Assembly: GCA_031459715.1 (NCBI GenBank)
Contig: JAVKIA010000019.1
Span: 1-45,499, forward strand
DNA from: Candidatus Humicultor tengchongensis
GTDB taxonomy: Bacteria > Sysuimicrobiota > Sysuimicrobiia > Sysuimicrobiales > Humicultoraceae
DNA length: 45,499 nucleotides
Reading direction: 5' to 3'
This document shows, piece after piece, positions 8,612-40,092 of the stretch; position 1 is the first letter of the stretch, and each line of letters begins with the position of its first letter. The notes under the pieces were generated by a model. That model did not search any database and had not been told where the DNA came from. It saw only the letters and a program-made list of their open reading frames with translations. The position numbers and the translations under genes were made by a program.

Positions 8612-9574
8612 TCAGCCCGGGATGCCTCCCCGCGATCCGCTCCGGTAGGCCAGCACCGCCCGGGCCTGCTCGTCGGCGTGGTAACTCGAGCGCACCAGCG
8701 GGCCGGACTCGACGTACTTGAAGCCGCGGCGCAGCCCTTCGTCACGGAGGCTGCGGAACTCCTCCGGCGTGTAGTAGCGGTCGATGGGATGGTACCCGGG
8801 CCCTGGCCGCAGGTACTGCCCCAGCGTCAGGATGTCAACGTCGACGGCCCGCAGGTCTTCCATGGTCTGCAGCAGTTCCTCCCAGGTCTCCCCCATCCCC
8901 AGGATGATCCCGCTCTTGGTGAAGCAGGTGTACCCCCACTCCTTCACCCGACGCAGCAGCTCCAGGGAGCGGTCGTAGCTGCCGCCGTGGCGCACCACCT
9001 TGAACACCCGGCGGACGCTCTCGATGTTGTGGCCGAGAATCTCCGGGTCGGCCTCCAGCACGGTGCGCAGCGCGGCGGCGTCTCCCTTGAAGTCGGGGAC
9101 CAGCACCTCCACGGTGCAGCCGGGGAAGATTTCCCGGATACTGCGGATGGTCCGGGCGTAGATGCCGGCGCCGCCGTCTCTCAGGTCGTCGCGGTTCACC
9201 GAGGTGATCACGGCGTGACGCAGCCCCATGGCCGCCACGGCGCGGGCGACCCGCTCCGGCTCCTGCACGTCCAGCTCGGTGGGCAGCCCGTGGGCGATGG
9301 CGCAGTAGGCGCAGTTGCGGGTGCACAGGTTGCCCAGGATGAGGAAGGTGGCGGTGCGGCGCCCCCAGCACTCGCCGATGTTGGGGCAGCGCGCCTCCTC
9401 GCAGACGGTGTGCAGGGTCTGCGTGCGCATGATGCCCACCAGGTCCTGGTAGGCGCCACCCCCAGGCAGCCGGACTTTGAGCCATGCAGGCCGGCGCGCC
9501 CCATCAAGCGGAGGGACGGAAGGCGAGACCTGGGGTGGCGGGAGGGAACGAGTTTCACCGGGAGCGAGGGCCAT
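8612..9574 (-). CDS. lipA: Lipoyl synthase
   Basis: 320-aa ORF with [12 protein letters not shown] and the radical-SAM motif CTRNCAYC. The start lies 2 nt after the E2 stop. Confidence 0.95.
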
Positions 9575-9576
9575 GG

Positions 9577-10905
9577 TTACAGGTCCGTGACCGCGGCCTG
9601 GCCGCCCCGGAAGCCTTCCAGCCGGGCCTTGATGTGGTTTAGGAACCGGTCGGCCACCGCGCCGTCAAAGACACGGTGGTCGAAGGAGAGCCCCAGGTGC
9701 ATGATGGAGCGGATGGCGATGGCCTCACCCCAGGGTGCCGCTTCGCCCCGCCCGTCGCCGCGACCCCCGACCACCACCGGCCGCCTGACAATGGCATCGG
9801 TGGCCAGGATGGCCGCCTGGCCGGGGAGGATGATGGGCATCGACCAGATCGAGCCGAAGATGCCGGGATTGGTGATGGTGAACGTCCCGCCCTCCACGTC
9901 CTCCAGGGTCAGCTTACCCTCGCGGGCCCTGCGGCTGAGGTCCTCCAGATCCCGGGCTATGCCCAGGAGCGACTTCTGATCGGCGTCCTTGATCACCGGA
10001 ACGATCAGGCCGTCCTCCAGGGCCACCCCGACGCCGATATTTACCCGGCCCCGCAGCAGGACGCCCTCCTCGGTCCAGGTGGAGTTGACCACGGGGAAGG
10101 CGCGCAGCGCCTCCGCCGCGGCCCGCACGAAGAAGGCGGTGTAGGTGAGGGCCACCCCGTGACGCTGCCGCCACTCGTCCTTGTACTTCTCCCGCCAGTC
10201 CACGACCCCGGTCATATCCACCTCGATCACGCCGTAGGCATGCGGGATCTCCCGCTTGGACTGGGCCATGCGCTGGGCAATGGTGCGTCGCAGCGGGGAG
10301 AGCTTGAGCAGCCGGTCGCCGGGAGCAGCCGCGGGGGTGGGGACGGCCGGCGCGGGGGCCACCGGCGGCCCTGCGGGTGAAGGGGCGGCAGCCGGCGGCG
10401 TGGCGGGGGAGACCACCGCCGGCGCAGTCTCCCGCTGGGCCACGTACCTGAGCAGGTCCTCCTTGGTGACCCGCCCGCCCGCCCCGCTGCCGCGGAGCTG
10501 CTCCACCTCGGCCAGGGGAATCCCGTGTTCTTCCGCCAGGCGGCGGACCAGCGGGGAGAGCCTGGCACCGGCCTGCCGCGGGGGCGGCGCACCCGCCGGG
10601 GGCGCAGAGGGGACGGGCCCCGCAGCCCCCGCCCCCACGGGTTCCCCCGCCGCCACGGGCTCGGCCGCTTCGACTTCCATCAGGGCGATGGGCGTTCCCA
10701 CCTCCCTGGTCTCACCCTCAGGCACCAGGATCTCTTTCAGGATGCCGCCATAGGGCGAGGGCATCTCCACGTTGACCTTGTCCGTGATGATCTCGACCAG
10801 AGGCTCAAACCGCTCCACCCGGTCGCCGGGCTGCTTCAGCCAGCGGCCGATGGTCCCCTCGAATGTGGACTCGCCTAGCTGGGGCAGCTTTATCTCAACG
10901 GGCAT
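9577..10905 (-). CDS. Dihydrolipoamide acyltransferase (E2) of a 2-oxoacid dehydrogenase complex, probably branched-chain
   Basis: 442 aa. It has a lipoyl domain ([14 protein letters not shown]), Ala/Pro linkers, a subunit-binding domain ([14 protein letters not shown]) and a catalytic domain with SFDHRVFDG. Confidence 0.9.
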
Positions 10906-13063: not shown

Positions 13064-14461
13064 TCAGATGTGAATGGCCCGGCCCAGCGCGTCCAGGGCC
13101 GCTTCCTTCAGCGCCTCGGCCAGGGTGGGGTGCGAGTGCACGGCGCGCCCCAGCTCATAGACGGTCCCCTCCAGGGATCTGACCGCGACGCCCTCCGCCA
13201 GCAGCTCCGTGACGCCGAACCCGACCATGTGTATGCCCAGAATCTCCCCCACCCGGGCGTCGGCCACCACCTTCACCAGCCCCTCGGTGGCGTCCTCGAT
13301 GGTAGCCTTGGAGTTGGCCTGGAAGGGGAAGCGCCCCACCCTCACCTCGCGGCCGCTCTCCCTGGCCTGCTGCTCGCTCAGCCCCATGGTGGCCACCTGG
13401 GGGATGGAGAACGTCGGCCGGGGGATGGCCTGGTAGTCGATGGACGGAGGCGAGGCTCCGGCGATGGACTCGGCCACAAACACCGCCTCCTCGGAGGCCA
13501 CGTGCGCCAGGCGGAAGGGTCGCCCCAGGACGTCCCCGATGCCGAAGATGGTCGGGGTGGCCGTGCGCAGGTTCGCGTCCACCTGCACCGCCCCCTGCTC
13601 GATCACCACCCCCGCCTCCTCCACAGCCAGCTCCCGATAGACCGGAGCCCGCCCCACCGCCACCAGCAGGTAGTCCGCGGCGATGGTGGTGGTCTGGTCG
13701 CCTTTGCGCAGGGTGATGGCCAACCCGTCGCCGCGGTACTCGACGCGCTCCGCCGTCGACTCCGTGTGCACCTGGATCCCGCGCCGCTCGAAAGACCGCT
13801 GCAGCTGCCGGCCGATCTCCTCGTCCTCCAAAGGCAGCAGCGTCGGCAGCAGCTCCACCAGCGTCACCTCGGCTCCGAAGGCGCGGAAGACGCTGGCCAT
13901 CTCCACCCCTACCGGCCCGGCACCCAGGATGGCGATGGCCCGCGGCACCTCCTTCAGGTCCAGCGCCGCGGTGCTGTCGATGATGCGCCGGTTGTCAATG
14001 GCAATCCCCGGGACGCTTCGTGGCGCGGAACCGGTGGCGATCATGAAGTGCTTCCCCCGCAGCGCGGTCTCCGACCCGTCCGCCAGGGCCACCGCCACCT
14101 CGGTCCTGCTCAGGAAGCGGGCCTCCCCGTGGAAGACGTCGACCCGGTTCTTGCGCAGCAGGTACTGGGTGCCCTTGTAGAGTTTCTCCACCACGCGCCG
14201 CTTCCTGGCGTGCACCGCGGCCAGGTCCACAGCCAGGTCACCGGTGGCGATCCCCAGGTCCCGGCCCCGGCGCAGCTCGTCCAGGACCCCGGCCACGTAG
14301 AGCAGCGCCTTGGTGGGGATGCAGCCGTAGTGCAGGCAGGTGCCGCCCACCTTGTCCCGCTCCACCACCGCCGTGCGCAGTCCAAGCTGCGCGGCGCGGA
14401 TGGCCCCCACGTAGCCGCCCGGTCCTGCGCCGATGACCACCAGGTCATAGGGTTCGGGCAT
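13064..14461 (-). CDS. lpd: Dihydrolipoyl dehydrogenase (E3)
   Basis: 465 aa with FAD motif GAGPGGY, the redox disulfide GGTCLHYGCIPTK, an NAD Rossmann GAGPVGVE and C-terminal HSHPTLAE. Confidence 0.95.
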   Translation of the reverse strand: MPEPYDLVVIGAGPGGYVGAIRAAQLGLRTAVVERDKVGGTCLHYGCIPTKALLYVAGVLDELRRGRDLGIATGDLAVDLAAVHARKRRVVEKLYKGTQYLLRKNRVDVFHGEARFLSRTEVAVALADGSETALRGKHFMIATGSAPRSVPGIAIDNRRIIDSTAALDLKEVPRAIAILGAGPVGVEMASVFRAFGAEVTLVELLPTLLPLEDEEIGRQLQRSFERRGIQVHTESTAERVEYRGDGLAITLRKGDQTTTIAADYLLVAVGRAPVYRELAVEEAGVVIEQGAVQVDANLRTATPTIFGIGDVLGRPFRLAHVASEEAVFVAESIAGASPPSIDYQAIPRPTFSIPQVATMGLSEQQARESGREVRVGRFPFQANSKATIEDATEGLVKVVADARVGEILGIHMVGFGVTELLAEGVAVRSLEGTVYELGRAVHSHPTLAEALKEAALDALGRAIHI

Positions 14462-14563
14462 GTGCTCTCCTCTCTATCCTCCCACTCCTGTCCGCCGTCA
14501 TACCCTCAATGCACCTCTCGTCCCGGCAGTTGGGAGAGCAGCTTGAGGTAGCGCGGCACGAGG

Positions 14564-16252
14564 CTACTTCCCCACACGGATGCGGATGATATGGTGACCG
14601 GTCGCCCCCTCCGGCAGCGGGGGCGAGGGCTGCGCCGTCTGCAGGGCCCCGGTGCCGTCGCGCGCCCGCACCCGCACCCGGTACTCCCCCGGTGCCGCCG
14701 GCGTCCACACCACCGCCCACAGCACCCAGGTATACGGCCCCAGCGGCGCCTTGACCTGCGCTGCCAGCCAGGCCCTGCCGTCGTCCGGGGAGACCTCCAC
14801 CGCCCGGATCCTCCGGGCGCCGGCGTAGGCCACCCCGCCCAGGCCCACCTCCTCCCCGGCCTTCGCCCGCAGCGGGGAAGGGATGGTGAACTTGGACATG
14901 GTCTGCACCACCGCCTGGTCGCTCCACCCCGAGCGCTCCCAGAACCCCTGGAAGTCGAAATCGGCCGCCTCGATCCGGGTGATCCACTTGGGATTCTTCA
15001 TCCCAAACAACCCCGGCACCAGCAGCCGCAGCGGGAAGCCGTGCCTGGGCGGCAGGGGCTCGCCGTTCATCTCGTAGACGAGCAGGGTGTCGGGATGCAG
15101 CGCTTCGGCCACCGGCAGCGATTCCGTGTAGCCGTCGGCGCAACGGAAGACCAGCTTGATGGCAGTGGGCGGCAGGCCTCCGGCCCTGGCCACCACGTCA
15201 CGCAGCCGGACTCCGCGCCAGTAGGCGTTGCCGATCAGGTCGCCGCCGACCTCGTTGCTGATGCACTCCAGGGTGTGCGGCCGGCGCACCGCAGGCATGG
15301 CCTTGAGCTCGTCCAGGCCCATCACCAGCGGGCGGTCCGGCCGCACTGCGACCTCCAGCCGCCAGCGATCGGCCCGCAGCACAGGGTCGAGTCCCGGCGG
15401 GTTCTTGCTCACCACATAGAACTGGTCGGTGGGTGTGACCTCCGGTGGCAACCCGCGCACGCGGGTAAAGGGACTCTGAGCGGTGACGGCGGGCCCTCCG
15501 GCCGCGGCGGCCCGCTCCTGCGCGGTGGGGGATATTGCGCCCAAACGTCCGGGCGCGCCGGGAGGTGCTGCGGCGGATGGTCTGAGCGCGGCCAGCCACT
15601 GCCACAGGCTCGCTCCCGTCAGCGTCCCCAGAGCCAGAGCCAGCCAGCGGCCCAGCAGCTCCCGGCGGGTACGGCTGTCCCCGCCGGCGGGGCCAAAACG
15701 GCGGGCGGGGGGCCACAGGACCGCCCCGGTCACCAACAGGGCGAACAGGCCCGCGTAAACGGCCAGCGCGCCCAGAATCCGGGCAGCAACGGAGGTGGGG
15801 TCGGGCTCGAGCACCCCCATGCCCTGCAGCCGGCCGCGCATGTACTCGGCGCCCGGGGTGAAGGTCAACCCCACGAGCGGCACAAATGCGGCGAGAAATG
15901 CGACCAGAAACCTGGTCGCAGCGACCCGGGCCGCGCTGCCGCCGCCTTCCGGTGCGCCGCCGTGGCCTGCAGACGGCTGCCCCCACGGCGCCCGTCCCAG
16001 AACGTATCCCAAAAGCGCCCAGGCGGCCACCATCCCCGCGAGCATCCCCCAGAAGGCCAGCGGCTTGGCCAGGAACTTGAGGCGGACGATGAGGAAGCCG
16101 AAGACCTCCACTGGCAGCAGGCGCAGGGTCCGCTCCCACAGGGCCAGAGCGACCACCGGGAACCCTGCAGTAAAAGTCCCCCGCAGCATCAGCGACACCG
16201 CCAGCACTCCAGCGGTGGCGCCGCCCAGCGCGCCGCGCGCGCCCCTGCTCAT
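14564..16252 (-). CDS. Membrane-anchored sulfite-oxidase-family (SUOX/YedY-like) molybdopterin oxidoreductase
   Basis: 562 aa. The N-terminal ~220 aa contain several hydrophobic helices. The SUOX Moco domain follows (FYVVSKN..., HTLECISNEVGG with the Mo-ligand Cys, GFPLRLLVPGLFGMKNPKWI), then an Ig-like C-terminal domain. The start lies 10 nt after the nuoC stop. Confidence 0.85.
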   Translation of the reverse strand: MSRGARGALGGATAGVLAVSLMLRGTFTAGFPVVALALWERTLRLLPVEVFGFLIVRLKFLAKPLAFWGMLAGMVAAWALLGYVLGRAPWGQPSAGHGGAPEGGGSAARVAATRFLVAFLAAFVPLVGLTFTPGAEYMRGRLQGMGVLEPDPTSVAARILGALAVYAGLFALLVTGAVLWPPARRFGPAGGDSRTRRELLGRWLALALGTLTGASLWQWLAALRPSAAAPPGAPGRLGAISPTAQERAAAAGGPAVTAQSPFTRVRGLPPEVTPTDQFYVVSKNPPGLDPVLRADRWRLEVAVRPDRPLVMGLDELKAMPAVRRPHTLECISNEVGGDLIGNAYWRGVRLRDVVARAGGLPPTAIKLVFRCADGYTESLPVAEALHPDTLLVYEMNGEPLPPRHGFPLRLLVPGLFGMKNPKWITRIEAADFDFQGFWERSGWSDQAVVQTMSKFTIPSPLRAKAGEEVGLGGVAYAGARRIRAVEVSPDDGRAWLAAQVKAPLGPYTWVLWAVVWTPAAPGEYRVRVRARDGTGALQTAQPSPPLPEGATGHHIIRIRVGK

Positions 16253-16262
16253 GTGCTGATCC

Positions 16263-16802
16263 CTACGCGCGTTCTCCCAGCCCGAGCCCCTCGATCTCCC
16301 GCTGCCGCTGCGCTGCCAGCGCCCGGAGCCATTCCGGGTCCTCGAAGACGTAATCCTTGCGCAGAGGGTGCCCCACCCAGTCCTCGGTCATCATGATGCG
16401 CCGGAGGTTGGGGTGCCCCTCGAAGGTGATGCCCAGGAGGTCGTAGGCTTCTCGCTCATGCCAGTCTGCGCCCTGCCAGATGCCGGTGACGCTGGGCACC
16501 CGGGGATCGTCGCGCGGCGTACGCACCTTGAGCACTAGCTCGTGCTGGTGGCGGAAGGAGAAGAGGTGGTAGACGACATCGATGCGTTGCTCTTCCGGGT
16601 AGTCCACCCCTGTGACAAACGACAGGTAGTCCATGGCGAATTCCGGATCGGCGGCCACGAAGCGGCAGATCTCCAGTAGCTGGTCCGCAGGCACCCAGGC
16701 CCCGGGGGTGAGGTAGACCGGGGCCTTCGCCTCCTCCCGCCGGGGAAACGGCTCCACCTGGGGGAACCGCCGGCGCAGGCGCTCCACCAGCTCCCAGCTC
16801 AC
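16263..16802 (-). CDS. nuoC: NADH-quinone oxidoreductase subunit C-like (30-kDa subunit family)
   Basis: 179 aa from GTG 16802, which overlaps the nuoI stop (GTGA). Sequence includes ...VVYHLFSFRHQHELVLKV...WHEREAYDLLGITFEGHPNLRRI... The upstream part of track ORF 16263..17252 is an out-of-frame shadow of nuoI. Confidence 0.88.
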   Translation of the reverse strand: MSWELVERLRRRFPQVEPFPRREEAKAPVYLTPGAWVPADQLLEICRFVAADPEFAMDYLSFVTGVDYPEEQRIDVVYHLFSFRHQHELVLKVRTPRDDPRVPSVTGIWQGADWHEREAYDLLGITFEGHPNLRRIMMTEDWVGHPLRKDYVFEDPEWLRALAAQRQREIEGLGLGERA

Positions 16803-17275
16803 AGCACCCTCCCCCGGATCACGCCGCGGGCGATGGGCTCCTTGGGCGCGGCCCGGTGCAGGTCCTCCAGACTGTAGAGGAGGTTGGCCCGGTTGTAGGT
16901 GCTGGCCTCGTAGTGTGGCACGAAGACGATGGCCTCCGTAGGGCAGACCTCCACGCACAGCCCGCAGTACTGGCACTTGTCCATCTCGATGTCGAAGCGG
17001 GTGAGCACTCGCTCCTTGCCCCGTCCGGTGGCCTCGATGTGGATGCAGCGGCTGGGGCAGACCCGCTCGCACTGGAAGCAGATGATGCACTGGTCGTTGC
17101 CGGTCTCCGGGTCCACCGGCAGGGCCAGCAGCCCGTGCCAGCGCGGAGAGATGTCGTTCTTCTCCAGCGGGTACTTGACGGTGTTCTTGGGGCGGACCAG
17201 GGCAATGAAGGTGAGCCGCAGCCCCTCCGCCAGCGCCTGCGCCCCCTGCCACACCCGTCCCAGGCTTACGGCCAC
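16799..17275 (-). CDS. nuoI: NADH-quinone oxidoreductase subunit I-like (2x[4Fe-4S] ferredoxin)
   Basis: 158 aa with two cluster motifs, CIICFQCERVCP and CQYCGLCVEVCP. Confidence 0.9.
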   Translation of the reverse strand: MAVSLGRVWQGAQALAEGLRLTFIALVRPKNTVKYPLEKNDISPRWHGLLALPVDPETGNDQCIICFQCERVCPSRCIHIEATGRGKERVLTRFDIEMDKCQYCGLCVEVCPTEAIVFVPHYEASTYNRANLLYSLEDLHRAAPKEPIARGVIRGRVL

Positions 17276-17340
17276 CAGCTCACCTCCGCCCCGTGGCCCT
17301 GCCCTACCGGCCGCGCCCGCGCCATGGTCCCACCCCGGAA

Positions 17341-18447
17341 TTACCGGTCCACATCCGAAAGCACAATGTCCACGCTGCCCAGGATGGCGATCACGTCGGC
17401 GATCTTCCAGCCGCGCATCATCTCTGACAGCGCATAGAGGTTGTTGAAGGCCGGGGCACGGATCTTCACCCGGTAGGGGTGCTCCTCCCCGTCGCTGACC
17501 AGATAGATACCCAGGTCCCCCCGCGGGGATTCCGTGCGCGTGTAGACCTCGCCCCTGGGCAGGCGCAGGGTGACGGGGATCTTCGGCGCGCGGATCTCGC
17601 CGGGTGGCAGCTTGGCCACCGCCTGCCGGATGATGCGGGTGGACTGCCGCATCTCCTCCACGCGCACCTGGTAGCGGGCGAAACAGTCCCCCTCCTGGCG
17701 CACCGGGATGTCGAAGTCCACCTCCGCGTACTTCTCGTAGGGGAAGGCTTTGCGTACGTCAAAGGCGATCCCGGAGGCCCGGGCTACCGGCCCCGACGCC
17801 CCCAGGTTGACGGCCAGCTCTCGCGGCAGTACCCCCACCCCCCTGGTGCGCACCTCAAAGATGGGATTGGCGGTGAACAGCCCCTCGTACTCTGCAATAC
17901 GCCCGGGGAACTCGTCGCAGAAGGCCAGCGCCTGCTCCACCCAGCCGTCGGGAATGTCGTCGCAGACGCCGCCGGGGCGGAAGTAGACGTGGTGCAGCCG
18001 TCCGCCCGTGACCCGTTCGAAGAGGTCCAGGACCTTCTCCCGCTCCCGGAAGCACCAGAGGAACATGGTGGTGGCCCCCAGGTCAGCCCCCCAGGTGCCC
18101 AGCCAGACCAGGTGGCTGGAGATGCGCTGCAGCTCCAGGAGGATGACCCGCAGCCACTGCGCCCGCTCCGGCACGCTGATCCCACCCAGGGTCTCCACCG
18201 CCCGCAGCAGCGCTTCCTCGTTGGCCAGCGCCGCCAGGTAATCCATCCCCCGGTCGGCCAGGGAGACGGACTGCAGGTAGGTGCGGTACTCCATCATCTT
18301 CTCGACGGAGGAGTGGAGGTAGCCGATGTCCGGGGCCACCTCCACAATGTTCTCGCCTTCCAGGGTGACGATCATCCGCAGCACCCCGTGCGTGCTGGGG
18401 TGCTGGGGCCCCAGGTTGAGGATGAGCTCTTCGGTGCGCAGCGCCAT
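17341..18447 (-). CDS. nuoD: NADH-quinone oxidoreductase subunit D-like (49-kDa family, short form, no NiFe cysteines)
   Basis: 368 aa. The N-terminus is LNLGPQHPSTHGVLRM and the C-terminus ILGSVDIVLSDVDR. Both are NuoD-type rather than hydrogenase CxxC motifs. Confidence 0.9.
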   Translation of the reverse strand: MALRTEELILNLGPQHPSTHGVLRMIVTLEGENIVEVAPDIGYLHSSVEKMMEYRTYLQSVSLADRGMDYLAALANEEALLRAVETLGGISVPERAQWLRVILLELQRISSHLVWLGTWGADLGATTMFLWCFREREKVLDLFERVTGGRLHHVYFRPGGVCDDIPDGWVEQALAFCDEFPGRIAEYEGLFTANPIFEVRTRGVGVLPRELAVNLGASGPVARASGIAFDVRKAFPYEKYAEVDFDIPVRQEGDCFARYQVRVEEMRQSTRIIRQAVAKLPPGEIRAPKIPVTLRLPRGEVYTRTESPRGDLGIYLVSDGEEHPYRVKIRAPAFNNLYALSEMMRGWKIADVIAILGSVDIVLSDVDR

Positions 18448-18451
18448 GAGC

Positions 18452-19042
18452 TCAGGAGGCCGCCACGCCGGCGCGGCGCCGCAGGAAGGGCTCCTTCTTG
18501 ATCTTCTCCTGGAGCTTCAGGATGCCCTCGTAGAGGGCCTCTGGCCGCGGCGGGCATCCCGGCACGTAGACATCCACCGGGATGATGGTGTCGATGCCCT
18601 TGAGGATGGAATAGTTGTCATAGAAGAAGGGTCCGCCGCAGGTGGCGCACGACCCCATGGAGATCACGTACTTGGGCTCAGGAATCTGCTCGTAGAGGCG
18701 GCGGACGATGGGAGCCATCTTGATGGTGCAGCGGCCGGAGACGATGATCAGGTCCGCCTGGCGCGGGGTGCCGCGGAAGAAGGTGCCGATGCGATCCATG
18801 TCGAACCGGCCGGCGGCCGCCGCCATCATCTCGATGGCGCAGCAGGCCAGGCCGAACCCCAGGGCCCAGAGGCTGCTGGCCCGCCCCCAGTTCAGGACCT
18901 GTTCCACTGAGGAGAGGATGACGCTGCCCCCGGGGAGGACGTCGATCATCTCGACCAGCCTGTCGATGGGCGTGGCGGTGCTGACGCGCAATTGACCGTT
19001 CCCCTGCCCGCCGGGCAGGGACCTCTCTGGCAGGTCGGGCAT
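18452..19042 (-). CDS. nuoB: NADH-quinone oxidoreductase subunit B-like (N2 cluster subunit)
   Basis: Carries [17 protein letters not shown] and [10 protein letters not shown] prefer ATG 19042 (GGGGAGG 7 nt upstream) over the track start 19075. Confidence 0.88.
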
Positions 19043-19076
19043 CCCTGGACCTCCCCGGCTCCCGCGGCCGGTCAAA

Positions 19077-19106
19077 TCCTAGCATGAGCATTTCAGAGGG
19101 GTCAAA
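19077..19106 (-). promoter_or_regulatory. Putative sigma-A-type promoter for nuoB-D-I-C and the SUOX gene
   Basis: Minus strand reads TTGACC-N18-TAGGAT, about 35 nt upstream of the nuoB ATG. Confidence 0.4.
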
Positions 19107-19350
19107 CTGACCCGATGGGGACCGCCAGGAGGGCGCGTCTGCCTGCGCGCTTCACCCCGTGGCGGGTCCCACCGCGGGGCTTCTTTCGAAGGAAACGCCG
19201 ATCGCCGACCTACCGCAGCATGAGAAAGGTCCGGCGCAGCCTGGCCAGCCCGTCCCGCCCCTGCGGTCGTCCCGCCGCCTCTAAAGGCGCACGCACTGCT
19301 CCAGGCCCGCCGCGATAAGCATCAGCACCCCCGGCCACGAGTATCGCCTC

Positions 19351-19701
19351 CTATGGGCGGACGGGCTCCTGCGTCGGATCCATCCCGGCCGCCTGCAGCA
19401 CTGCGGCCAGGAACGCCGCCTCAGGCAGCGCTCCCTCAAACTGCGTGGTTTCGTTGATGACCACCTTGGGCACGCCGTAGACGCTGTACCGCTGCGCCAG
19501 GTCCGGGTACTCGGAAGCGTCGATAACATCGGCCCGCACCCGCGGCGACTCCAGCGCCATGGCGTGGGCCAGCCGCGCGGCCCGCGGGCAGTAGGGGCAG
19601 GTCGGGGTGACGAAGACCTGGATGTGCACGTCCCGGGCGAGACCGGCCAGCGCCTGCCGGGTCTGCGGGCTCAGGCCGCTATCCCTCCGGGAGACCGCCA
19701 C
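19351..19701 (-). CDS. Thioredoxin-fold protein with a CPYC active site (C-terminal unit of a PDO/glutaredoxin-like protein disulfide oxidoreductase)
   Basis: 116 aa from GTG 19701: ...[25 protein letters not shown]...[10 protein letters not shown].. This closely resembles the second unit of archaeal and thermophile PDO proteins. Confidence 0.8.
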
Positions 19702-20015
19702 CAGGTCTTCCAGGAAAGCCGCAAACTCGAAGCCGGCCGGGATGCCGTAGTACCGGATGCGGCCTGCGCCGTCACGGGCGTCGCTGGCATAGGAGCCACT
19801 CTCCCGGGTCCTGATGTGAGGGGCCCGACCGTCTGGTCCGCACCTGTGGAGATGATAATGGTCGGGATGCGGGCGACGGGCGGCGCGCCGGGATCCCCAA
19901 AGACCCCGTGGATGCGCAGCCGGATACGCGGGTCGAGTGCGGCGACCTCCCGCAGGAGCTGCGCCTCGCCGTCAACCCTTCCCGCCCGGGTGACCGAAGG
20001 TCCGGTGATCCCCAT
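19702..20015 (-). pseudogene. Degenerate, frameshifted N-terminal thioredoxin-fold unit of the same PDO-like gene
   Basis: In frame with the CDS, the upstream sequence encodes ...[38 protein letters not shown], the conserved inter-unit PDO motif. The preceding homologous segment ([26 protein letters not shown]...ARIPTIIIS) lies in a different frame, that of track ORF 19671..20015. That ORF begins directly after a TAG and has no CxxC. Confidence 0.55.
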
Positions 20016-37450: not shown

Positions 37451-38893
37451 ATGGCCTTGCCGGGAAAGCCAGAGCGCGCGGGACGTATGTGGCTGGCCGC
37501 AGCCCTCGGCCTGCTGGTCGCAGGCTCCGCCGCAGCACCCGCCCTGGCCGCCGATCCGTCCGGGAGCGCCACCCTGGCCCGTCAGCCCGAGGCCGCCGTC
37601 AACTTCACCTGGACGCTGGTGGCCGCCTTCCTGGTCTTCTTCATGCAGGCGGGGTTCGCCCTGCTGGGTGCAGGGCTGATCCGCTCCAAGAACACGGTCA
37701 ACTACCTGACCAAGAGCTTCATGGACTTCTGCATGGCCTCGCTCTCCTTCTGGGCCTTCGGCTTCGCCCTGATGTTCGGCGGCTCCAGGCTGGCCCCAGG
37801 CCTGGAGGCCGGAGGCACCCTGGCGGGCTTCTCCGGATTCTTCCTGGCCCGCGGGAGCTACGACGTCTCCGCTGCGATGCTGTGGCTGTTCCAGATGGTC
37901 TTCGCCGCCACGGCGGCGACCATCGTCGCCGGCGCGGTGGCCGAGCGCATGAAGATCACTGCTTACCTGGCCTACAGCTTCCTCATCGGCGCGCTTATCT
38001 ACCCCATCTACGGGCACTGGGTCTGGGGCGGGGGCTGGCTGGCAACCCTGCCCTGGGGCGCGGGGGCGCGGGACTTCGCTGGCTCCGGCGTCGTGCACGC
38101 CGTGGGCGGGCTGCTGGCCCTGGTCGGTGCGGCCATGACCGGTCCGCGCCTGGGGAAATTCAACCGTGACGGCACGGCCAATGCCATCCCCGGCCACAAC
38201 ATGGTCTACGCCGTGACCGGGACGTTTGTCCTTTTCTTCGGCTGGTTCGGCTTCAACGCCGGCAGCACCCTGGCGGCCACCGACCTGCGCACCGCGGTGA
38301 TTGCCACAAACACCTTCCTCGCCGGAACCGCCGGAGCCGTAACCGCCCTCTACTACGCCCTGGTCCGCAGCGGTCGGGCGGATGTGGTCATGGCCTGCAA
38401 CGGCGCGCTGGCCGGCCTGGTGGGGATCACCGCTCCCTGCGCCTACGTGGCGCCGTGGGCGGCGGTGGTGATCGGCGCCGTCGGCGCCCTGATCATGGTG
38501 GGTGTGAGCGCCTTCGTCGAGCGGGTCCTCAAGGTGGACGACCCGGTGGGTGCCATCGCCGTGCACGCGGGCGGGGGGCTGTGGGGCCTGCTCGCGGTGG
38601 GAATTTTTGCCGACGGCACCTACGGAGGCGTCCGCGGGCTGATTACCGGAGCCGGAGGTCAGATGTTGGCGCAACTGGTGAGCATCGGCGCGGTCCTGGC
38701 CTGGAGCCTGGGGACCGGGTTCCTGATGTTCTGGTTCCTCAAGGCGACCATGGGCCTTCGGGCCTCGCCGGAGGAGGAGCTGTCGGGGCTGGACGTCCCC
38801 GAGCACGGGATCGAGTGCTACCCGGAACTGCAACTGGTCCCGGTTATGGGCGCCAGTGAGCCCCCGGCGATGCGACGGGAGGTGGGAGCATGA
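37451..38893 (+). CDS. amt: Ammonium transporter (Amt/MEP family) with an N-terminal signal peptide
   Basis: 480 aa with AGGAGGG 7 nt upstream: ...FLVFFMQAGFALLGAGLIRSKN..., ...AVHAGGGLWGLLAVGIFADG... A signal-like segment MWLAAALGLLVAGSAAAPALAA is present. Confidence 0.93.
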   Translation: MALPGKPERAGRMWLAAALGLLVAGSAAAPALAADPSGSATLARQPEAAVNFTWTLVAAFLVFFMQAGFALLGAGLIRSKNTVNYLTKSFMDFCMASLSFWAFGFALMFGGSRLAPGLEAGGTLAGFSGFFLARGSYDVSAAMLWLFQMVFAATAATIVAGAVAERMKITAYLAYSFLIGALIYPIYGHWVWGGGWLATLPWGAGARDFAGSGVVHAVGGLLALVGAAMTGPRLGKFNRDGTANAIPGHNMVYAVTGTFVLFFGWFGFNAGSTLAATDLRTAVIATNTFLAGTAGAVTALYYALVRSGRADVVMACNGALAGLVGITAPCAYVAPWAAVVIGAVGALIMVGVSAFVERVLKVDDPVGAIAVHAGGGLWGLLAVGIFADGTYGGVRGLITGAGGQMLAQLVSIGAVLAWSLGTGFLMFWFLKATMGLRASPEEELSGLDVPEHGIECYPELQLVPVMGASEPPAMRREVGA

Positions 38894-40092
38894 TCTCCGA
38901 GGTGACAGCCGCTGTCCTCTTCTTCCTCCTGCTGGCCGCGGCCTGGCTGGTCCTGCCCACGCTCTTCGTACACCGGGAGCGGGTGGAGGGAGCGGCACGG
39001 CGGGAGCGACAGAGGCAGGTGGCGGCCGAACGCGTGCACCTGGCCGGCCCCCTGCCGGGAGGTCCGCCCAGGATGCGCTCCCGGGGGGCGCTTGCCGGCA
39101 GGCTGGTGCGCAACTCCCAGGACGGGACCTCTCCAAACGGTACGACTCCCCGCTACTTCTTCGTCGCCGACGGGGGAGCCCACGGCCCGGGTGAACTGCG
39201 CGTCCCCATCTACCACCAGGTCAACCCCCGACCGGACCTGCTGCGCAAGGAGATCTACGTGGCAGAGGTGGCGGGGATGCGGCTGGAGGCCGGCAACCTG
39301 CCGCTTCTGGCAGAGATGCTATCGGTGGAGCTCGCCCGGCTGCGCCGCGGCGGCGCGCTGCCGCGCTACTGGTTCACGCTGCCCGACGGCGGCAGCGTGC
39401 CGGTATTCGCCCGGGGGGAGGGGTTTGAGGCCCGCATACCCGGGGGCCCGCACCTGGTGGAGCAGACGGTGGGCCGGCTGCGTCGCCGCCTGGCGGAGTA
39501 CCTGGCGCCGTTCGGAGAGGCCGCCCGGGGCGGTGGGCCCGAGGTCCTGGTGCTTGGAGCCGACCTGCGCTGCGCCCGGCCGGTTGCGGCCTTCGCCGCT
39601 GGGGAACTCTGGCTGCCGGTCCTGCGTATGGACGGGGCGCTGGTGGTGGAGGAGGCGGTGTATGAGCGCCAGCCCGCGGAGGAGGACGCCGCCGCGCTGC
39701 TCCCCCTGCGCCGCCGCGTCGCCGACCGCCTGGTGGCCCGGGGTCGTGTGCGCTCCCCCGCCGAAGTTCGGATCGAAGAGGTGGAACGGCACGCAGCACA
39801 GCGGCTGCGCCTGCTCCTGGGCCCGCCGGTGGGCCACCTGCCCTGCTTCGGCGCCGAGGGCGGGACGCTGGAGCAGGTTCTGCTCCCGGTCTTCCGCTTC
39901 CAGGGCGAGGTGCTCTGCCCCGGCCGGGCGGACTTCTCCGTCCTCTACGTCGGTCGGGACGAGGAGGAGTTACGCGCTCAGGTGGACGGCTCCTCATGGC
40001 GGGACGGCCTGGGCGCGGCCGCAGACCTTCTCCCGCCCGCCGCAGCAGGGCAGGCCAGGGACAAGACCAGCGCGCTGGGGAGGGTGATCTGA
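38890..40092 (+). CDS. Hypothetical membrane-anchored protein with an internally repeated Arg-rich soluble region (no family recognised)
   Basis: 400-aa ORF with coding-like composition and GC3 bias. Its ATG overlaps the amt stop (ATGA). It has an N-terminal TM helix (AAVLFFLLLAAAWLVLPTLFV) and repeated segments PRYFFVADGG... and PRYWFTLPDGG... The alternative-frame ORF 39092..40087 is Cys/Trp/Arg-rich and rejected. Confidence 0.75.
   Translation: MISEVTAAVLFFLLLAAAWLVLPTLFVHRERVEGAARRERQRQVAAERVHLAGPLPGGPPRMRSRGALAGRLVRNSQDGTSPNGTTPRYFFVADGGAHGPGELRVPIYHQVNPRPDLLRKEIYVAEVAGMRLEAGNLPLLAEMLSVELARLRRGGALPRYWFTLPDGGSVPVFARGEGFEARIPGGPHLVEQTVGRLRRRLAEYLAPFGEAARGGGPEVLVLGADLRCARPVAAFAAGELWLPVLRMDGALVVEEAVYERQPAEEDAAALLPLRRRVADRLVARGRVRSPAEVRIEEVERHAAQRLRLLLGPPVGHLPCFGAEGGTLEQVLLPVFRFQGEVLCPGRADFSVLYVGRDEEELRAQVDGSSWRDGLGAAADLLPPAAAGQARDKTSALGRVI

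Follow-up and report, generated by a model that had tools for sequence, protein, structure and literature searches.

Gene content of the nuoBDIC locus

We analysed a 45,499-nt stretch of the genome of Candidatus Humicultor tengchongensis (assembly GCA_031459715.1, contig JAVKIA010000019.1, positions 1 to 45,499), referred to here as the window. Between positions 14564 and 19106, on the minus strand, it carries four genes for hydrophilic subunits of respiratory complex I in the order nuoB-nuoD-nuoI-nuoC, followed by the gene of a polytopic SUOX-family molybdoenzyme. An initial annotation of this DNA had put forward two explanations for the arrangement, namely a split nuo operon, or a quinone-reducing module (Q-module) that acts as redox partner of the molybdoenzyme, the membrane domain of the latter standing in for NuoH. 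Coordinates without a locus label are positions in the window, and labels of the form L003 denote loci from other genomes. The features of the locus are as follows.

19076..19105, minus strand: sigma-70-like promoter TTGACC-N18-TAGGAT, TG-extended, upstream of nuoB
18452..19042, minus strand: nuoB, 196 amino acids (aa) from ATG 19042, PF01058 (Oxidored_q6) match
17341..18447, minus strand: nuoD, short type, 368 aa, Complex1_49kDa/NuoD, 495 bits with NuoD model NF004739
16799..17275, minus strand: nuoI, 158 aa, 2x[4Fe-4S] subunit, 116.8 bits with TIGR01971 (cut-off 113)
16263..16802, minus strand: nuoC, 179 aa, GTG start, PF00329 (Complex1_30kDa), 148.7 bits with TIGR01961 (cut-off 122)
14564..16252, minus strand: polytopic SUOX-family molybdoenzyme gene, Sco3746-like, 562 aa, PF00174 (Oxidored_molyb) and PF03404 (Mo-co_dimer)

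The genes are closely packed, with a gap of 4 nt between nuoB and nuoD, a gap of 65 nt between nuoD and nuoI, a 4-nt overlap (GTGA) between nuoI and nuoC, and 10 nt between nuoC and the molybdoenzyme gene. The gene map, the B-D-I-C order and the junctions of the initial annotation all agreed with these coordinates, and its family assignments were confirmed by Pfam and NCBIfam; NuoB scored 234 bits against NF005012 (cut-off 116), and the PF00174 match of the molybdoenzyme had an E-value of 6e-46. The promoter that had been reported before nuoB was recovered at 19105-19076 as the sole sigma-70-like match within 13900-19800, where 0.2 would be expected, and 10 of 26 related genomes have a similar sequence (TTGAC[CG]-N17-18-TAnnAT) 5′ of nuoB. 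The start of nuoB itself is ambiguous, with candidates at TTG 19075 (207 aa), ATG 19042 (196 aa) and the NCBI-called ATG 18949 (165 aa); the first 35 or so residues of NuoB are weakly conserved among orthologues, and the promoter-like −10 element ends at 19076. No terminator-like site was found 3′ of nuoC or of the molybdoenzyme gene in the window, and the nuoBDIC genes and the molybdoenzyme gene are probably co-transcribed in this genome and its closest relative. The initial annotation had also remarked on the lack of other nuo genes nearby. This holds throughout the 45.5-kb window, in which no further nuo gene was found, and in its relatives, where no homologue of NuoA, NuoH, NuoJ, NuoK, NuoL, NuoE, NuoF or NuoG was present within 10 kb on either side at 28 related loci.

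Quinone site and iron-sulphur ligands

NuoD was aligned to Nqo4 of Thermus thermophilus (PDB search, E-value 2.5e-119), and His38, Tyr87 and Asp139 are given here in Thermus numbering. His38 corresponds to H20 of NuoD, within an identical GPQHPSTHGV stretch, and Asp139 corresponds to D122. The tyrosine that contacts the quinone headgroup had been thought to be absent, which proved wrong: the R-MDY of Nqo4 pairs with RGMDY, so that Tyr87 aligns to Y70. All three equivalents, together with Thr135, are invariant in 28 NuoD orthologues. The initial annotation had itself proposed such an alignment to Nqo4, and had counted a complete set of canonical quinone-site residues against its suggestion of a new enzyme; every one of these residues is intact.

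The ligands of the iron-sulphur (Fe-S) clusters are equally complete. The four N2 ligands of NuoB (C67, C68, C132 and C163), whose retention had been noticed before, are all present and are invariant in 25 orthologues, and NuoI contains two CxxCxxCxxxCP motifs (C63/66/69/73 and C101/104/107/111) of which all eight cysteines are invariant in 28 orthologues. Across Nqo4, Nqo6, Nqo9 and Nqo5 of T. thermophilus (PDB 4HEA) the catalytic and cluster-binding residues all align; the Thermus proteins differ in an extra helix segment of about 22 residues in Nqo4, and belong to a 14-subunit enzyme (plus accessory subunits) encoded by a single nqo operon. As judged from these alignments, neither the quinone site nor any Fe-S ligand is disrupted, and strong purifying selection acts on both.

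Two other identities were considered for these genes and rejected. NuoD begins with LNLGPQHPSTHG, ends with DIVLSDVDR and contains no CxxC motif; a group 4 [NiFe] hydrogenase or Mbx subunit is ruled out, there being no NiFe cysteines and the NuoD models scoring above their cut-offs. As 172 of the 368 NuoD positions are invariant across the phylum, decay or pseudogenisation of the Q-module is likewise ruled out.

A short NuoD of the 11-subunit type

In the alignment to Nqo4, about 22 residues (Nqo4 315-336, the MEAVIYHFK helix) are missing from NuoD. The initial annotation had tentatively noted that a MEALIHHFK-like helix seems to be missing; the loss is real, and it tracks 11-subunit operons. 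NuoD is matched end to end, without a break, by both the Bacillus-type model NF008974 (366 aa) and the FpoD model; in the PDB search, HycE and the MBS and MBH subunits of Pyrococcus likewise gave alignments to it in a single stretch. From these unbroken matches, the NF008974, FpoD, MBS, MBH and HycE forms appear to lack the helix segment too.

We compared NuoD length with gene order at 50 loci outside the phylum. All four loci with a NuoD of similar length had the order (A-B-C-)D-H-I-J-K-L, and about 45 loci with a NuoD 21-39 aa longer had the order D-E-F-G-H. The gene 3′ of nuoD in the window is nuoI, and the distinction between nuoD followed by nuoH and nuoD followed by nuoE is therefore not applicable at this locus. 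Because the short NuoD co-occurs with 11-subunit operons that lack nuoEFG, we regard it as a character of a clade and not as the sign of a degenerate site.

Location of the membrane-arm genes

Gene counts for the phylum CSP1-3 (Candidatus Sysuimicrobiota or Fervidifonticultor), to which the metagenome-assembled source genome of the window belongs, were taken from the KEGG Orthology (KO) copy table for 45 metagenome-assembled genomes (MAGs) in part 29 of supplement 2 of PMC11604079. That part of the supplement gives one nuoD and one ndhH, one nuoC and one ndhJ, two nuoB and two nuoI. For the membrane subunits it gives two copies each of A (nuoA plus ndhC), H (nuoH plus ndhA), J (nuoJ plus ndhG), nuoK, L (nuoL plus ndhF), nuoM and N (nuoN plus ndhB), and for the N-module a single copy each of nuoE, nuoF and nuoG. 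Two of every core subunit and one N-module would, on these tabulated counts, correspond to one 14-subunit and one 11-subunit enzyme, which implies that a matching membrane set for the Q-module in the window is encoded elsewhere in the genome.

Split nuo clusters have been reported as common (PMC12361115), and the closest relative outside the phylum has one. In an Armatimonadota genome (L095, GCA_054642155.1), with identities of 63% for NuoB, 56% for NuoD, 42% for NuoI and 42% for NuoC, nuoABCD is divergent from tyrS-nuoHIJKLMN-ubiE, the two units adjoining (L095:6260-17896). Clusters that start at nuoH with no nuoABCD upstream were found at L089 (10001-19570), L092 (128-4861) and L100 (10001-19279). 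Like the 11-subunit complex I of Armatimonadota, Dehalococcoidales and the Bacillus type, the enzyme described here combines a short NuoD without the MEAVIYHFK segment with intact His38, Tyr87 and Asp139; like that of the L095 type, it has the N2 and N6a/b ligands and no adjacent N-module genes, and it would be encoded in more than one transcription unit. The break lies elsewhere than in L095: in the window nuoI is joined to the other hydrophilic genes in the order B-D-I-C and nuoA has been left out, and the membrane genes would lie more than 10 kb away.

Some further features of the outside loci were also recorded. No nuoABCD was seen within 10 kb in L089 and L100. The Armatimonadota-type nuoHIJKLMN unit follows or overlaps tyrS in L095, L096 and L092, and does not do so in L089 and L100; in L089, L095 and L100, ubiE and a polyprenyl synthase gene (menaquinone synthesis) come after it.

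The molybdoenzyme

The molybdoenzyme consists of a membrane domain followed by a catalytic portion with a molybdenum cofactor (Moco) domain. Its parts are as follows.

15584..16252, minus strand: membrane domain, aa 1-223, five long helices and a conserved two-helix loop (aa 25-60)
15644..15673, minus strand: twin-arginine motif SRTRRELLGR, aa 194-203, immediately N-terminal to the last transmembrane helix (194-223)
14567..15460, minus strand: Moco-binding and dimerisation (Ig-like) domains, aa ~265-562, with Mo-ligand Cys330

An AlphaFold2 model (pLDDT 74.7) placed helices at residues 3-24, 33-45, 48-58, 62-87, 105-144, 152-179 and 194-223, with a disordered linker after the membrane helices, then the SUOX and Ig-like domains. 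Conservation was assessed in an alignment of 33 homologues (A1). The Mo-ligand cysteine that had been pointed out in HTLECISN, Cys330, is invariant among them. A [ST]RRE[LV]LxR sequence stands just before the last hydrophobic helix and is near-invariant, with R196 and R197 in at least 90% of the sequences and R202 in all of them; the twin arginines are kept in 32 of 33 close homologues and in 6 of 6 distant representatives. The loops at aa 88-104 and 180-193 of the membrane domain are variable and rich in indels. Residues 1-230 contain no cysteines and a single histidine, His97, which lies in a variable loop, and no invariant histidine or cysteine was found in the transmembrane part across the 33 homologues. 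Within the membrane domain, conservation is highest at aa 25-70 (PVVALALWER..LP.EVFGFLIVRLKFxAKPxAFWG), a charged segment common to distant homologues, which may dock the Moco domain or bind a quinone or the substrate.

The family is large, with 1180 cluster representatives at E<=1e-30, mostly of 500-580 aa. Polytopic Moco proteins that are dual-targeted by the Sec and twin-arginine translocation (Tat) pathways, of which Sco3746 of Streptomyces coelicolor is the type, have been described by Tooke et al., 2017 (PMC5449189), who listed a Ktedonobacter protein as a homologue. In that study, Sco3746 was found by experiment to have five transmembrane domains (TMDs), an extracellular loop between TMD1 and TMD2 and Tat-dependent translocation after TMD5, and reporter fusions showed that its twin-arginine motif makes TMD5 and the Moco domain dependent on Tat (PMC5449189). 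Profile comparison of our family with a Ktedonobacterales set gave 100% probability over 515 columns, membrane domain included, and it is via this full-length homology to Ktedonobacterales members of the Sco3746 family that we draw the kinship. The molybdoenzyme resembles Sco3746 in its N-terminal domain of about 220 aa with five transmembrane helices, its C-terminal SUOX-fold Moco domain, the twin-arginine motif right before the last helix and the long conserved loop between the first and second transmembrane helices. It differs from Sco3746 in lacking the conserved histidines of TMD2-4 that have been proposed to bind two b hemes. Given the conserved twin-arginine motif before the last helix and the homology to Sco3746, the Moco domain is predicted to face the outside of the cell; the two-helix loop at aa 25-70 is predicted, by homology to the mapped topology of Sco3746, to be extracytoplasmic as well.

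The molybdoenzyme shares the SUOX fold, the Mo-ligand cysteine and the C-terminal Ig-like dimerisation domain with SorA, SoxC and MsrP (YedY). Unlike these, which pair with a cytochrome or with MsrQ, it is anchored by a polytopic domain of its own. The best solved relative of the Moco domain is SorA (2ca3, E-value 3e-24), and a deletion just after the Mo-ligand cysteine removes the SorA segment SRGFVEPR, which carries the substrate arginine of SorA. Scores fell far below the cut-offs of the SorA (122 vs 600), SoxC (114 vs 420) and SorT (100 vs 570) models; these low scores and the deleted segment together suggest that the substrate is probably not sulfite, and we rule out a sulfite dehydrogenase of the SorA, SorT or SoxC kind. 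MsrP (YedY), and with it an MsrPQ system, is also ruled out: the match to the MsrP model NF003767 covers only 67 residues and scores 45 bits (cut-off 207), and no MsrQ-like gene adjoins the molybdoenzyme gene.

Conservation of the locus in CSP1-3

Relatives were sought in a scan of one genome per species. NuoD sequences of 72-89% identity were found at 28 loci, all from CSP1-3, and the next identity was at most 54%. The order nuoB-D-I-C is kept in every CSP1-3 locus and, where the contig is long enough, nuoC is followed by one to three SUOX-family genes and then by lpd and the E1alpha gene of a 2-oxoacid dehydrogenase. The exact molybdoenzyme sequence was also found in two MAGs (GCA_031459065.1 and GCA_031458875.1). 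The synteny of nuoBDIC with the SUOX gene, for which the initial annotation had suggested looking, is thus conserved within the phylum and missing outside it. L083 retains the block from nuoB to lipA next to another upstream flank (NifU, transketolase). A DUF2203 gene lies between the SUOX gene and lpd at L083:11531-11944, L003:13739-14269, L010:8210-8725 and L021:10582-11013; it is missing from the window, where the gap between the SUOX gene and lpd is 102 nt.

The junction between nuoC and the SUOX gene varies widely. The gap of 10 nt was found in the window and L003 only; in 14 genomes it is 67-297 nt and in about six it exceeds 1 kb, with inserted genes in at least five and an unreliably placed SUOX start in one or two. 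At L020:12333-19808 and L021:5263-11013, and also in L019, L022 and L023, genes for an OmpR-type response regulator and a histidine kinase stand between nuoC and lpd, and the inserts of the same subgroup, L019-L023, further encode a short SUOX-fold protein of about 200 aa and a second polytopic SUOX paralogue, sometimes with a third. In L084, too, the polytopic paralogue comes after a short SUOX gene (9376-9939).

In at least 14 CSP1-3 genomes, the interval from nuoC to the SUOX gene contains a non-coding element of the form TTGACG-NN-ATCTTTAC(G)-N~10-TGGTAnGAT, in which the octamer ATCTTTAC is invariant and around which the flanking sequence does not align (alignment A3). The element occurs at L007:12200-12245, L013:12255-12300, L017:12419-12465, L024:7333-7375 and ten other loci, and is absent from the window. 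TTGACG and TAnGAT stand about 20 nt apart in it, further than would suit a plain sigma-70 promoter, and the element may therefore combine a promoter with an operator. The intergenic motif TTGACGNNATCTTTACG had at least 120 matches when metagenomes were scanned for it, and one of the 120 loci listed was relevant. At L083:9808-9834, 22 nt past the nuoC stop codon, we found a GC-rich hairpin of 12 perfectly matched base pairs, followed by a T-rich tail, that resembles a terminator. Rfam and tRNA scans of the window gave nothing, and Rfam scans of seven relatives gave one tRNA only and no Moco riboswitch.

Taken together, the variable gap, the ATCTTTAC element and the L083 hairpin make the molybdoenzyme gene look independently controlled in most of the phylum, and the 10-nt junction in the window is a local derivative. 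The initial annotation had named a terminator or separate regulation at this junction as evidence against a joint enzyme, and relatives do show such separate regulation. Outside CSP1-3, three homologues that we examined (Ktedonobacterales and others) had no nuo neighbours, their neighbours including TatA and MoeA, and a CSP1-3 paralogue of the molybdoenzyme adjoins a short SUOX gene and hemE/hemH/hemY.

Genomic context

The nuoBDIC block is embedded in genes of branched-chain amino-acid metabolism (2686-30089). Upstream of nuoBDIC are ilvD, leuB, leuC, a leuA-like gene, ilvC and ilvB; downstream are a branched-chain 2-oxoacid dehydrogenase operon (lpd-E1alpha-E1beta-E2-lipA), a liv ABC transporter and a class IV aminotransferase. 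Other genes in the window encode glutamate synthase, AmtB, GlnA and a Trx-like protein. A ThiF/MoeB-rhodanese fusion is encoded on the minus strand at 1470-2645, about 12 kb from the molybdoenzyme gene, and could serve sulphur transfer for Moco or thiamin synthesis. An open reading frame of 400 aa on the plus strand (38890-40092), between the ammonium transporter and flotillin/SPFH genes, has good coding statistics and a GC content at third codon positions of 0.86, and has no Pfam match.

Interpretation of the locus

We consider it likely that nuoBDIC encodes the hydrophilic arm of a split-operon, 11-subunit complex I and that its neighbour encodes a Sco3746-like exported molybdoenzyme; it is almost certain that the two are not parts of one complex. 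The split operon was the first of the alternatives in the initial annotation, and it is favoured by the intact sites, the short NuoD, the KO counts and the split enzyme in the nearest outside relatives. NuoB, NuoD, NuoI and NuoC would then form the quinone-reducing arm of a complex I without NuoEFG, in which electrons would pass from N6a/N6b to N2 and on to the quinone site. We infer that the four proteins would assemble in the cytoplasm and then dock on NuoH, NuoA and antiporter-like subunits made from another locus, with electrons reaching menaquinone at the normal NuoD/NuoB/NuoH site. The first four helices of the molybdoenzyme would be inserted by Sec, after which the twin-arginine motif would direct the final helix, together with the folded Moco domain, to Tat, so that the catalytic domain would act outside the cytoplasm on a substrate that is probably not sulfite.

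Several points weigh against this interpretation. The CSP1-3 membrane-arm locus was not found: a protein search with NuoH of L040, a related 11-subunit operon, and context look-ups gave only other phyla. The loci recovered by the NuoH search had a GC content of 50-66% and A-B-C-D-H-I or H-I-J-K-L-M-N arrangements, and came from other lineages; candidates for the look-ups had been picked by name, K/R and FYMINK composition and clustering, and amino-acid composition predicts GC content poorly for membrane proteins. The KO counts do not tell which membrane set pairs with this Q-module, nor whether the orphan cluster has a nuoI of its own. The topology of the molybdoenzyme is a prediction, and its membership of the Sco3746-like family is incomplete in that the heme-ligating histidines of Sco3746 are missing. 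Finally, the nuoBDIC-SUOX(-DUF2203)-lpd-branched-chain 2-oxoacid dehydrogenase block is kept phylum-wide even with a different upstream flank, which, with the 10-nt gap and no terminator, makes some functional link possible; the synteny also extends to lpd and the 2-oxoacid dehydrogenase operon, so that the linkage may be inherited gene order.

The other alternative in the initial annotation was that NuoB, NuoD, NuoI and NuoC dock on the membrane domain of the SUOX protein in place of NuoH, giving a new complex in which electrons move between N2 and Mo. Such docking would fit the 10-nt gap without a terminator in the window and L003, the synteny in every CSP1-3 locus that is long enough, the lack of NuoH or NuoA within 10 kb on either side and the highly conserved aa 25-70 segment. 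That segment, however, corresponds to the extracellular TMD1-2 loop of Sco3746 and is conserved also in homologues without nuo neighbours, and export of the Moco domain would follow from the conserved twin-arginine motif before the last helix. The loops on the cytoplasmic side are short, with variable and indel-rich sequences, the membrane domain has no redox ligands, and the quinone-site residues that work with NuoH are invariant; the tabulated KO counts give the phylum a second, matching set of membrane subunits, and most relatives have a separate upstream element for the SUOX gene, a terminator-like hairpin or inserted regulators. A physical complex is contradicted by the predicted topology, the lack of a conserved cytoplasmic face and the independent occurrence of the family elsewhere without nuo genes, and we regard it as extremely improbable; the proposal that the membrane domain replaces NuoH is left unsupported.

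A functional coupling without contact, in which the exported molybdoenzyme oxidises a substrate outside the cell and reduces menaquinone and complex I uses the quinol, possibly running in reverse to reduce ferredoxin for autotrophy, with selection holding the genes together on that account, seems unlikely to us. The retention of the block across the phylum despite a differing upstream flank and the likely co-transcription in the window are consistent with it, as is the description of CSP1-3 in PMC11604079 as facultative chemoautotrophs on H2 or sulfide. Against this, lpd and the 2-oxoacid dehydrogenase operon share the synteny, which may be no more than inherited order; in most genomes the SUOX gene has a conserved upstream element of its own, and in some it has separate regulators; the membrane domain shows neither a quinone site nor a cofactor; and the sulfite-binding segment of SorA is deleted. 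We think it very unlikely that nuoBDIC encodes an alternative Q-module that swaps onto the membrane arm of the 14-subunit enzyme. No membrane-arm locus was seen directly, the KO counts are threshold-dependent and NuoI barely passes TIGR01971, all of which would leave room for such an exchange, but two copies of every membrane subunit are tabulated for nearly all of the 45 MAGs in that part of the supplement, and in other lineages the short-type NuoD always has its own H-I-J-K-L genes. In a more speculative form of the coupling, which we hold to be quite unlikely, selection keeps the nuoBDIC, molybdoenzyme and 2-oxoacid dehydrogenase block together and the exported, heme-less molybdoenzyme is a dedicated quinone-linked partner of complex I, supplying for example quinol for reverse flow to ferredoxin; in its boldest form the membrane domain would contact the complex.

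On the reading that we prefer, that of a split 11-subunit complex I beside an exported molybdoenzyme, a cluster of nuoBDIC alone is not evidence for a new enzyme when its quinone site is intact and the genome has matching membrane genes. CSP1-3 would possess a second, NuoEFG-less complex I whose four hydrophilic subunits are encoded in one unit, a clean split between Q-module and P-module that fits the modular assembly and modular origin of complex I. The molybdoenzyme would extend the Sco3746-like exported molybdoenzymes, a little-studied group, by a branch without heme; a functional link between the two, were it to prove true, would indicate an electron source or sink for the 11-subunit complex I.

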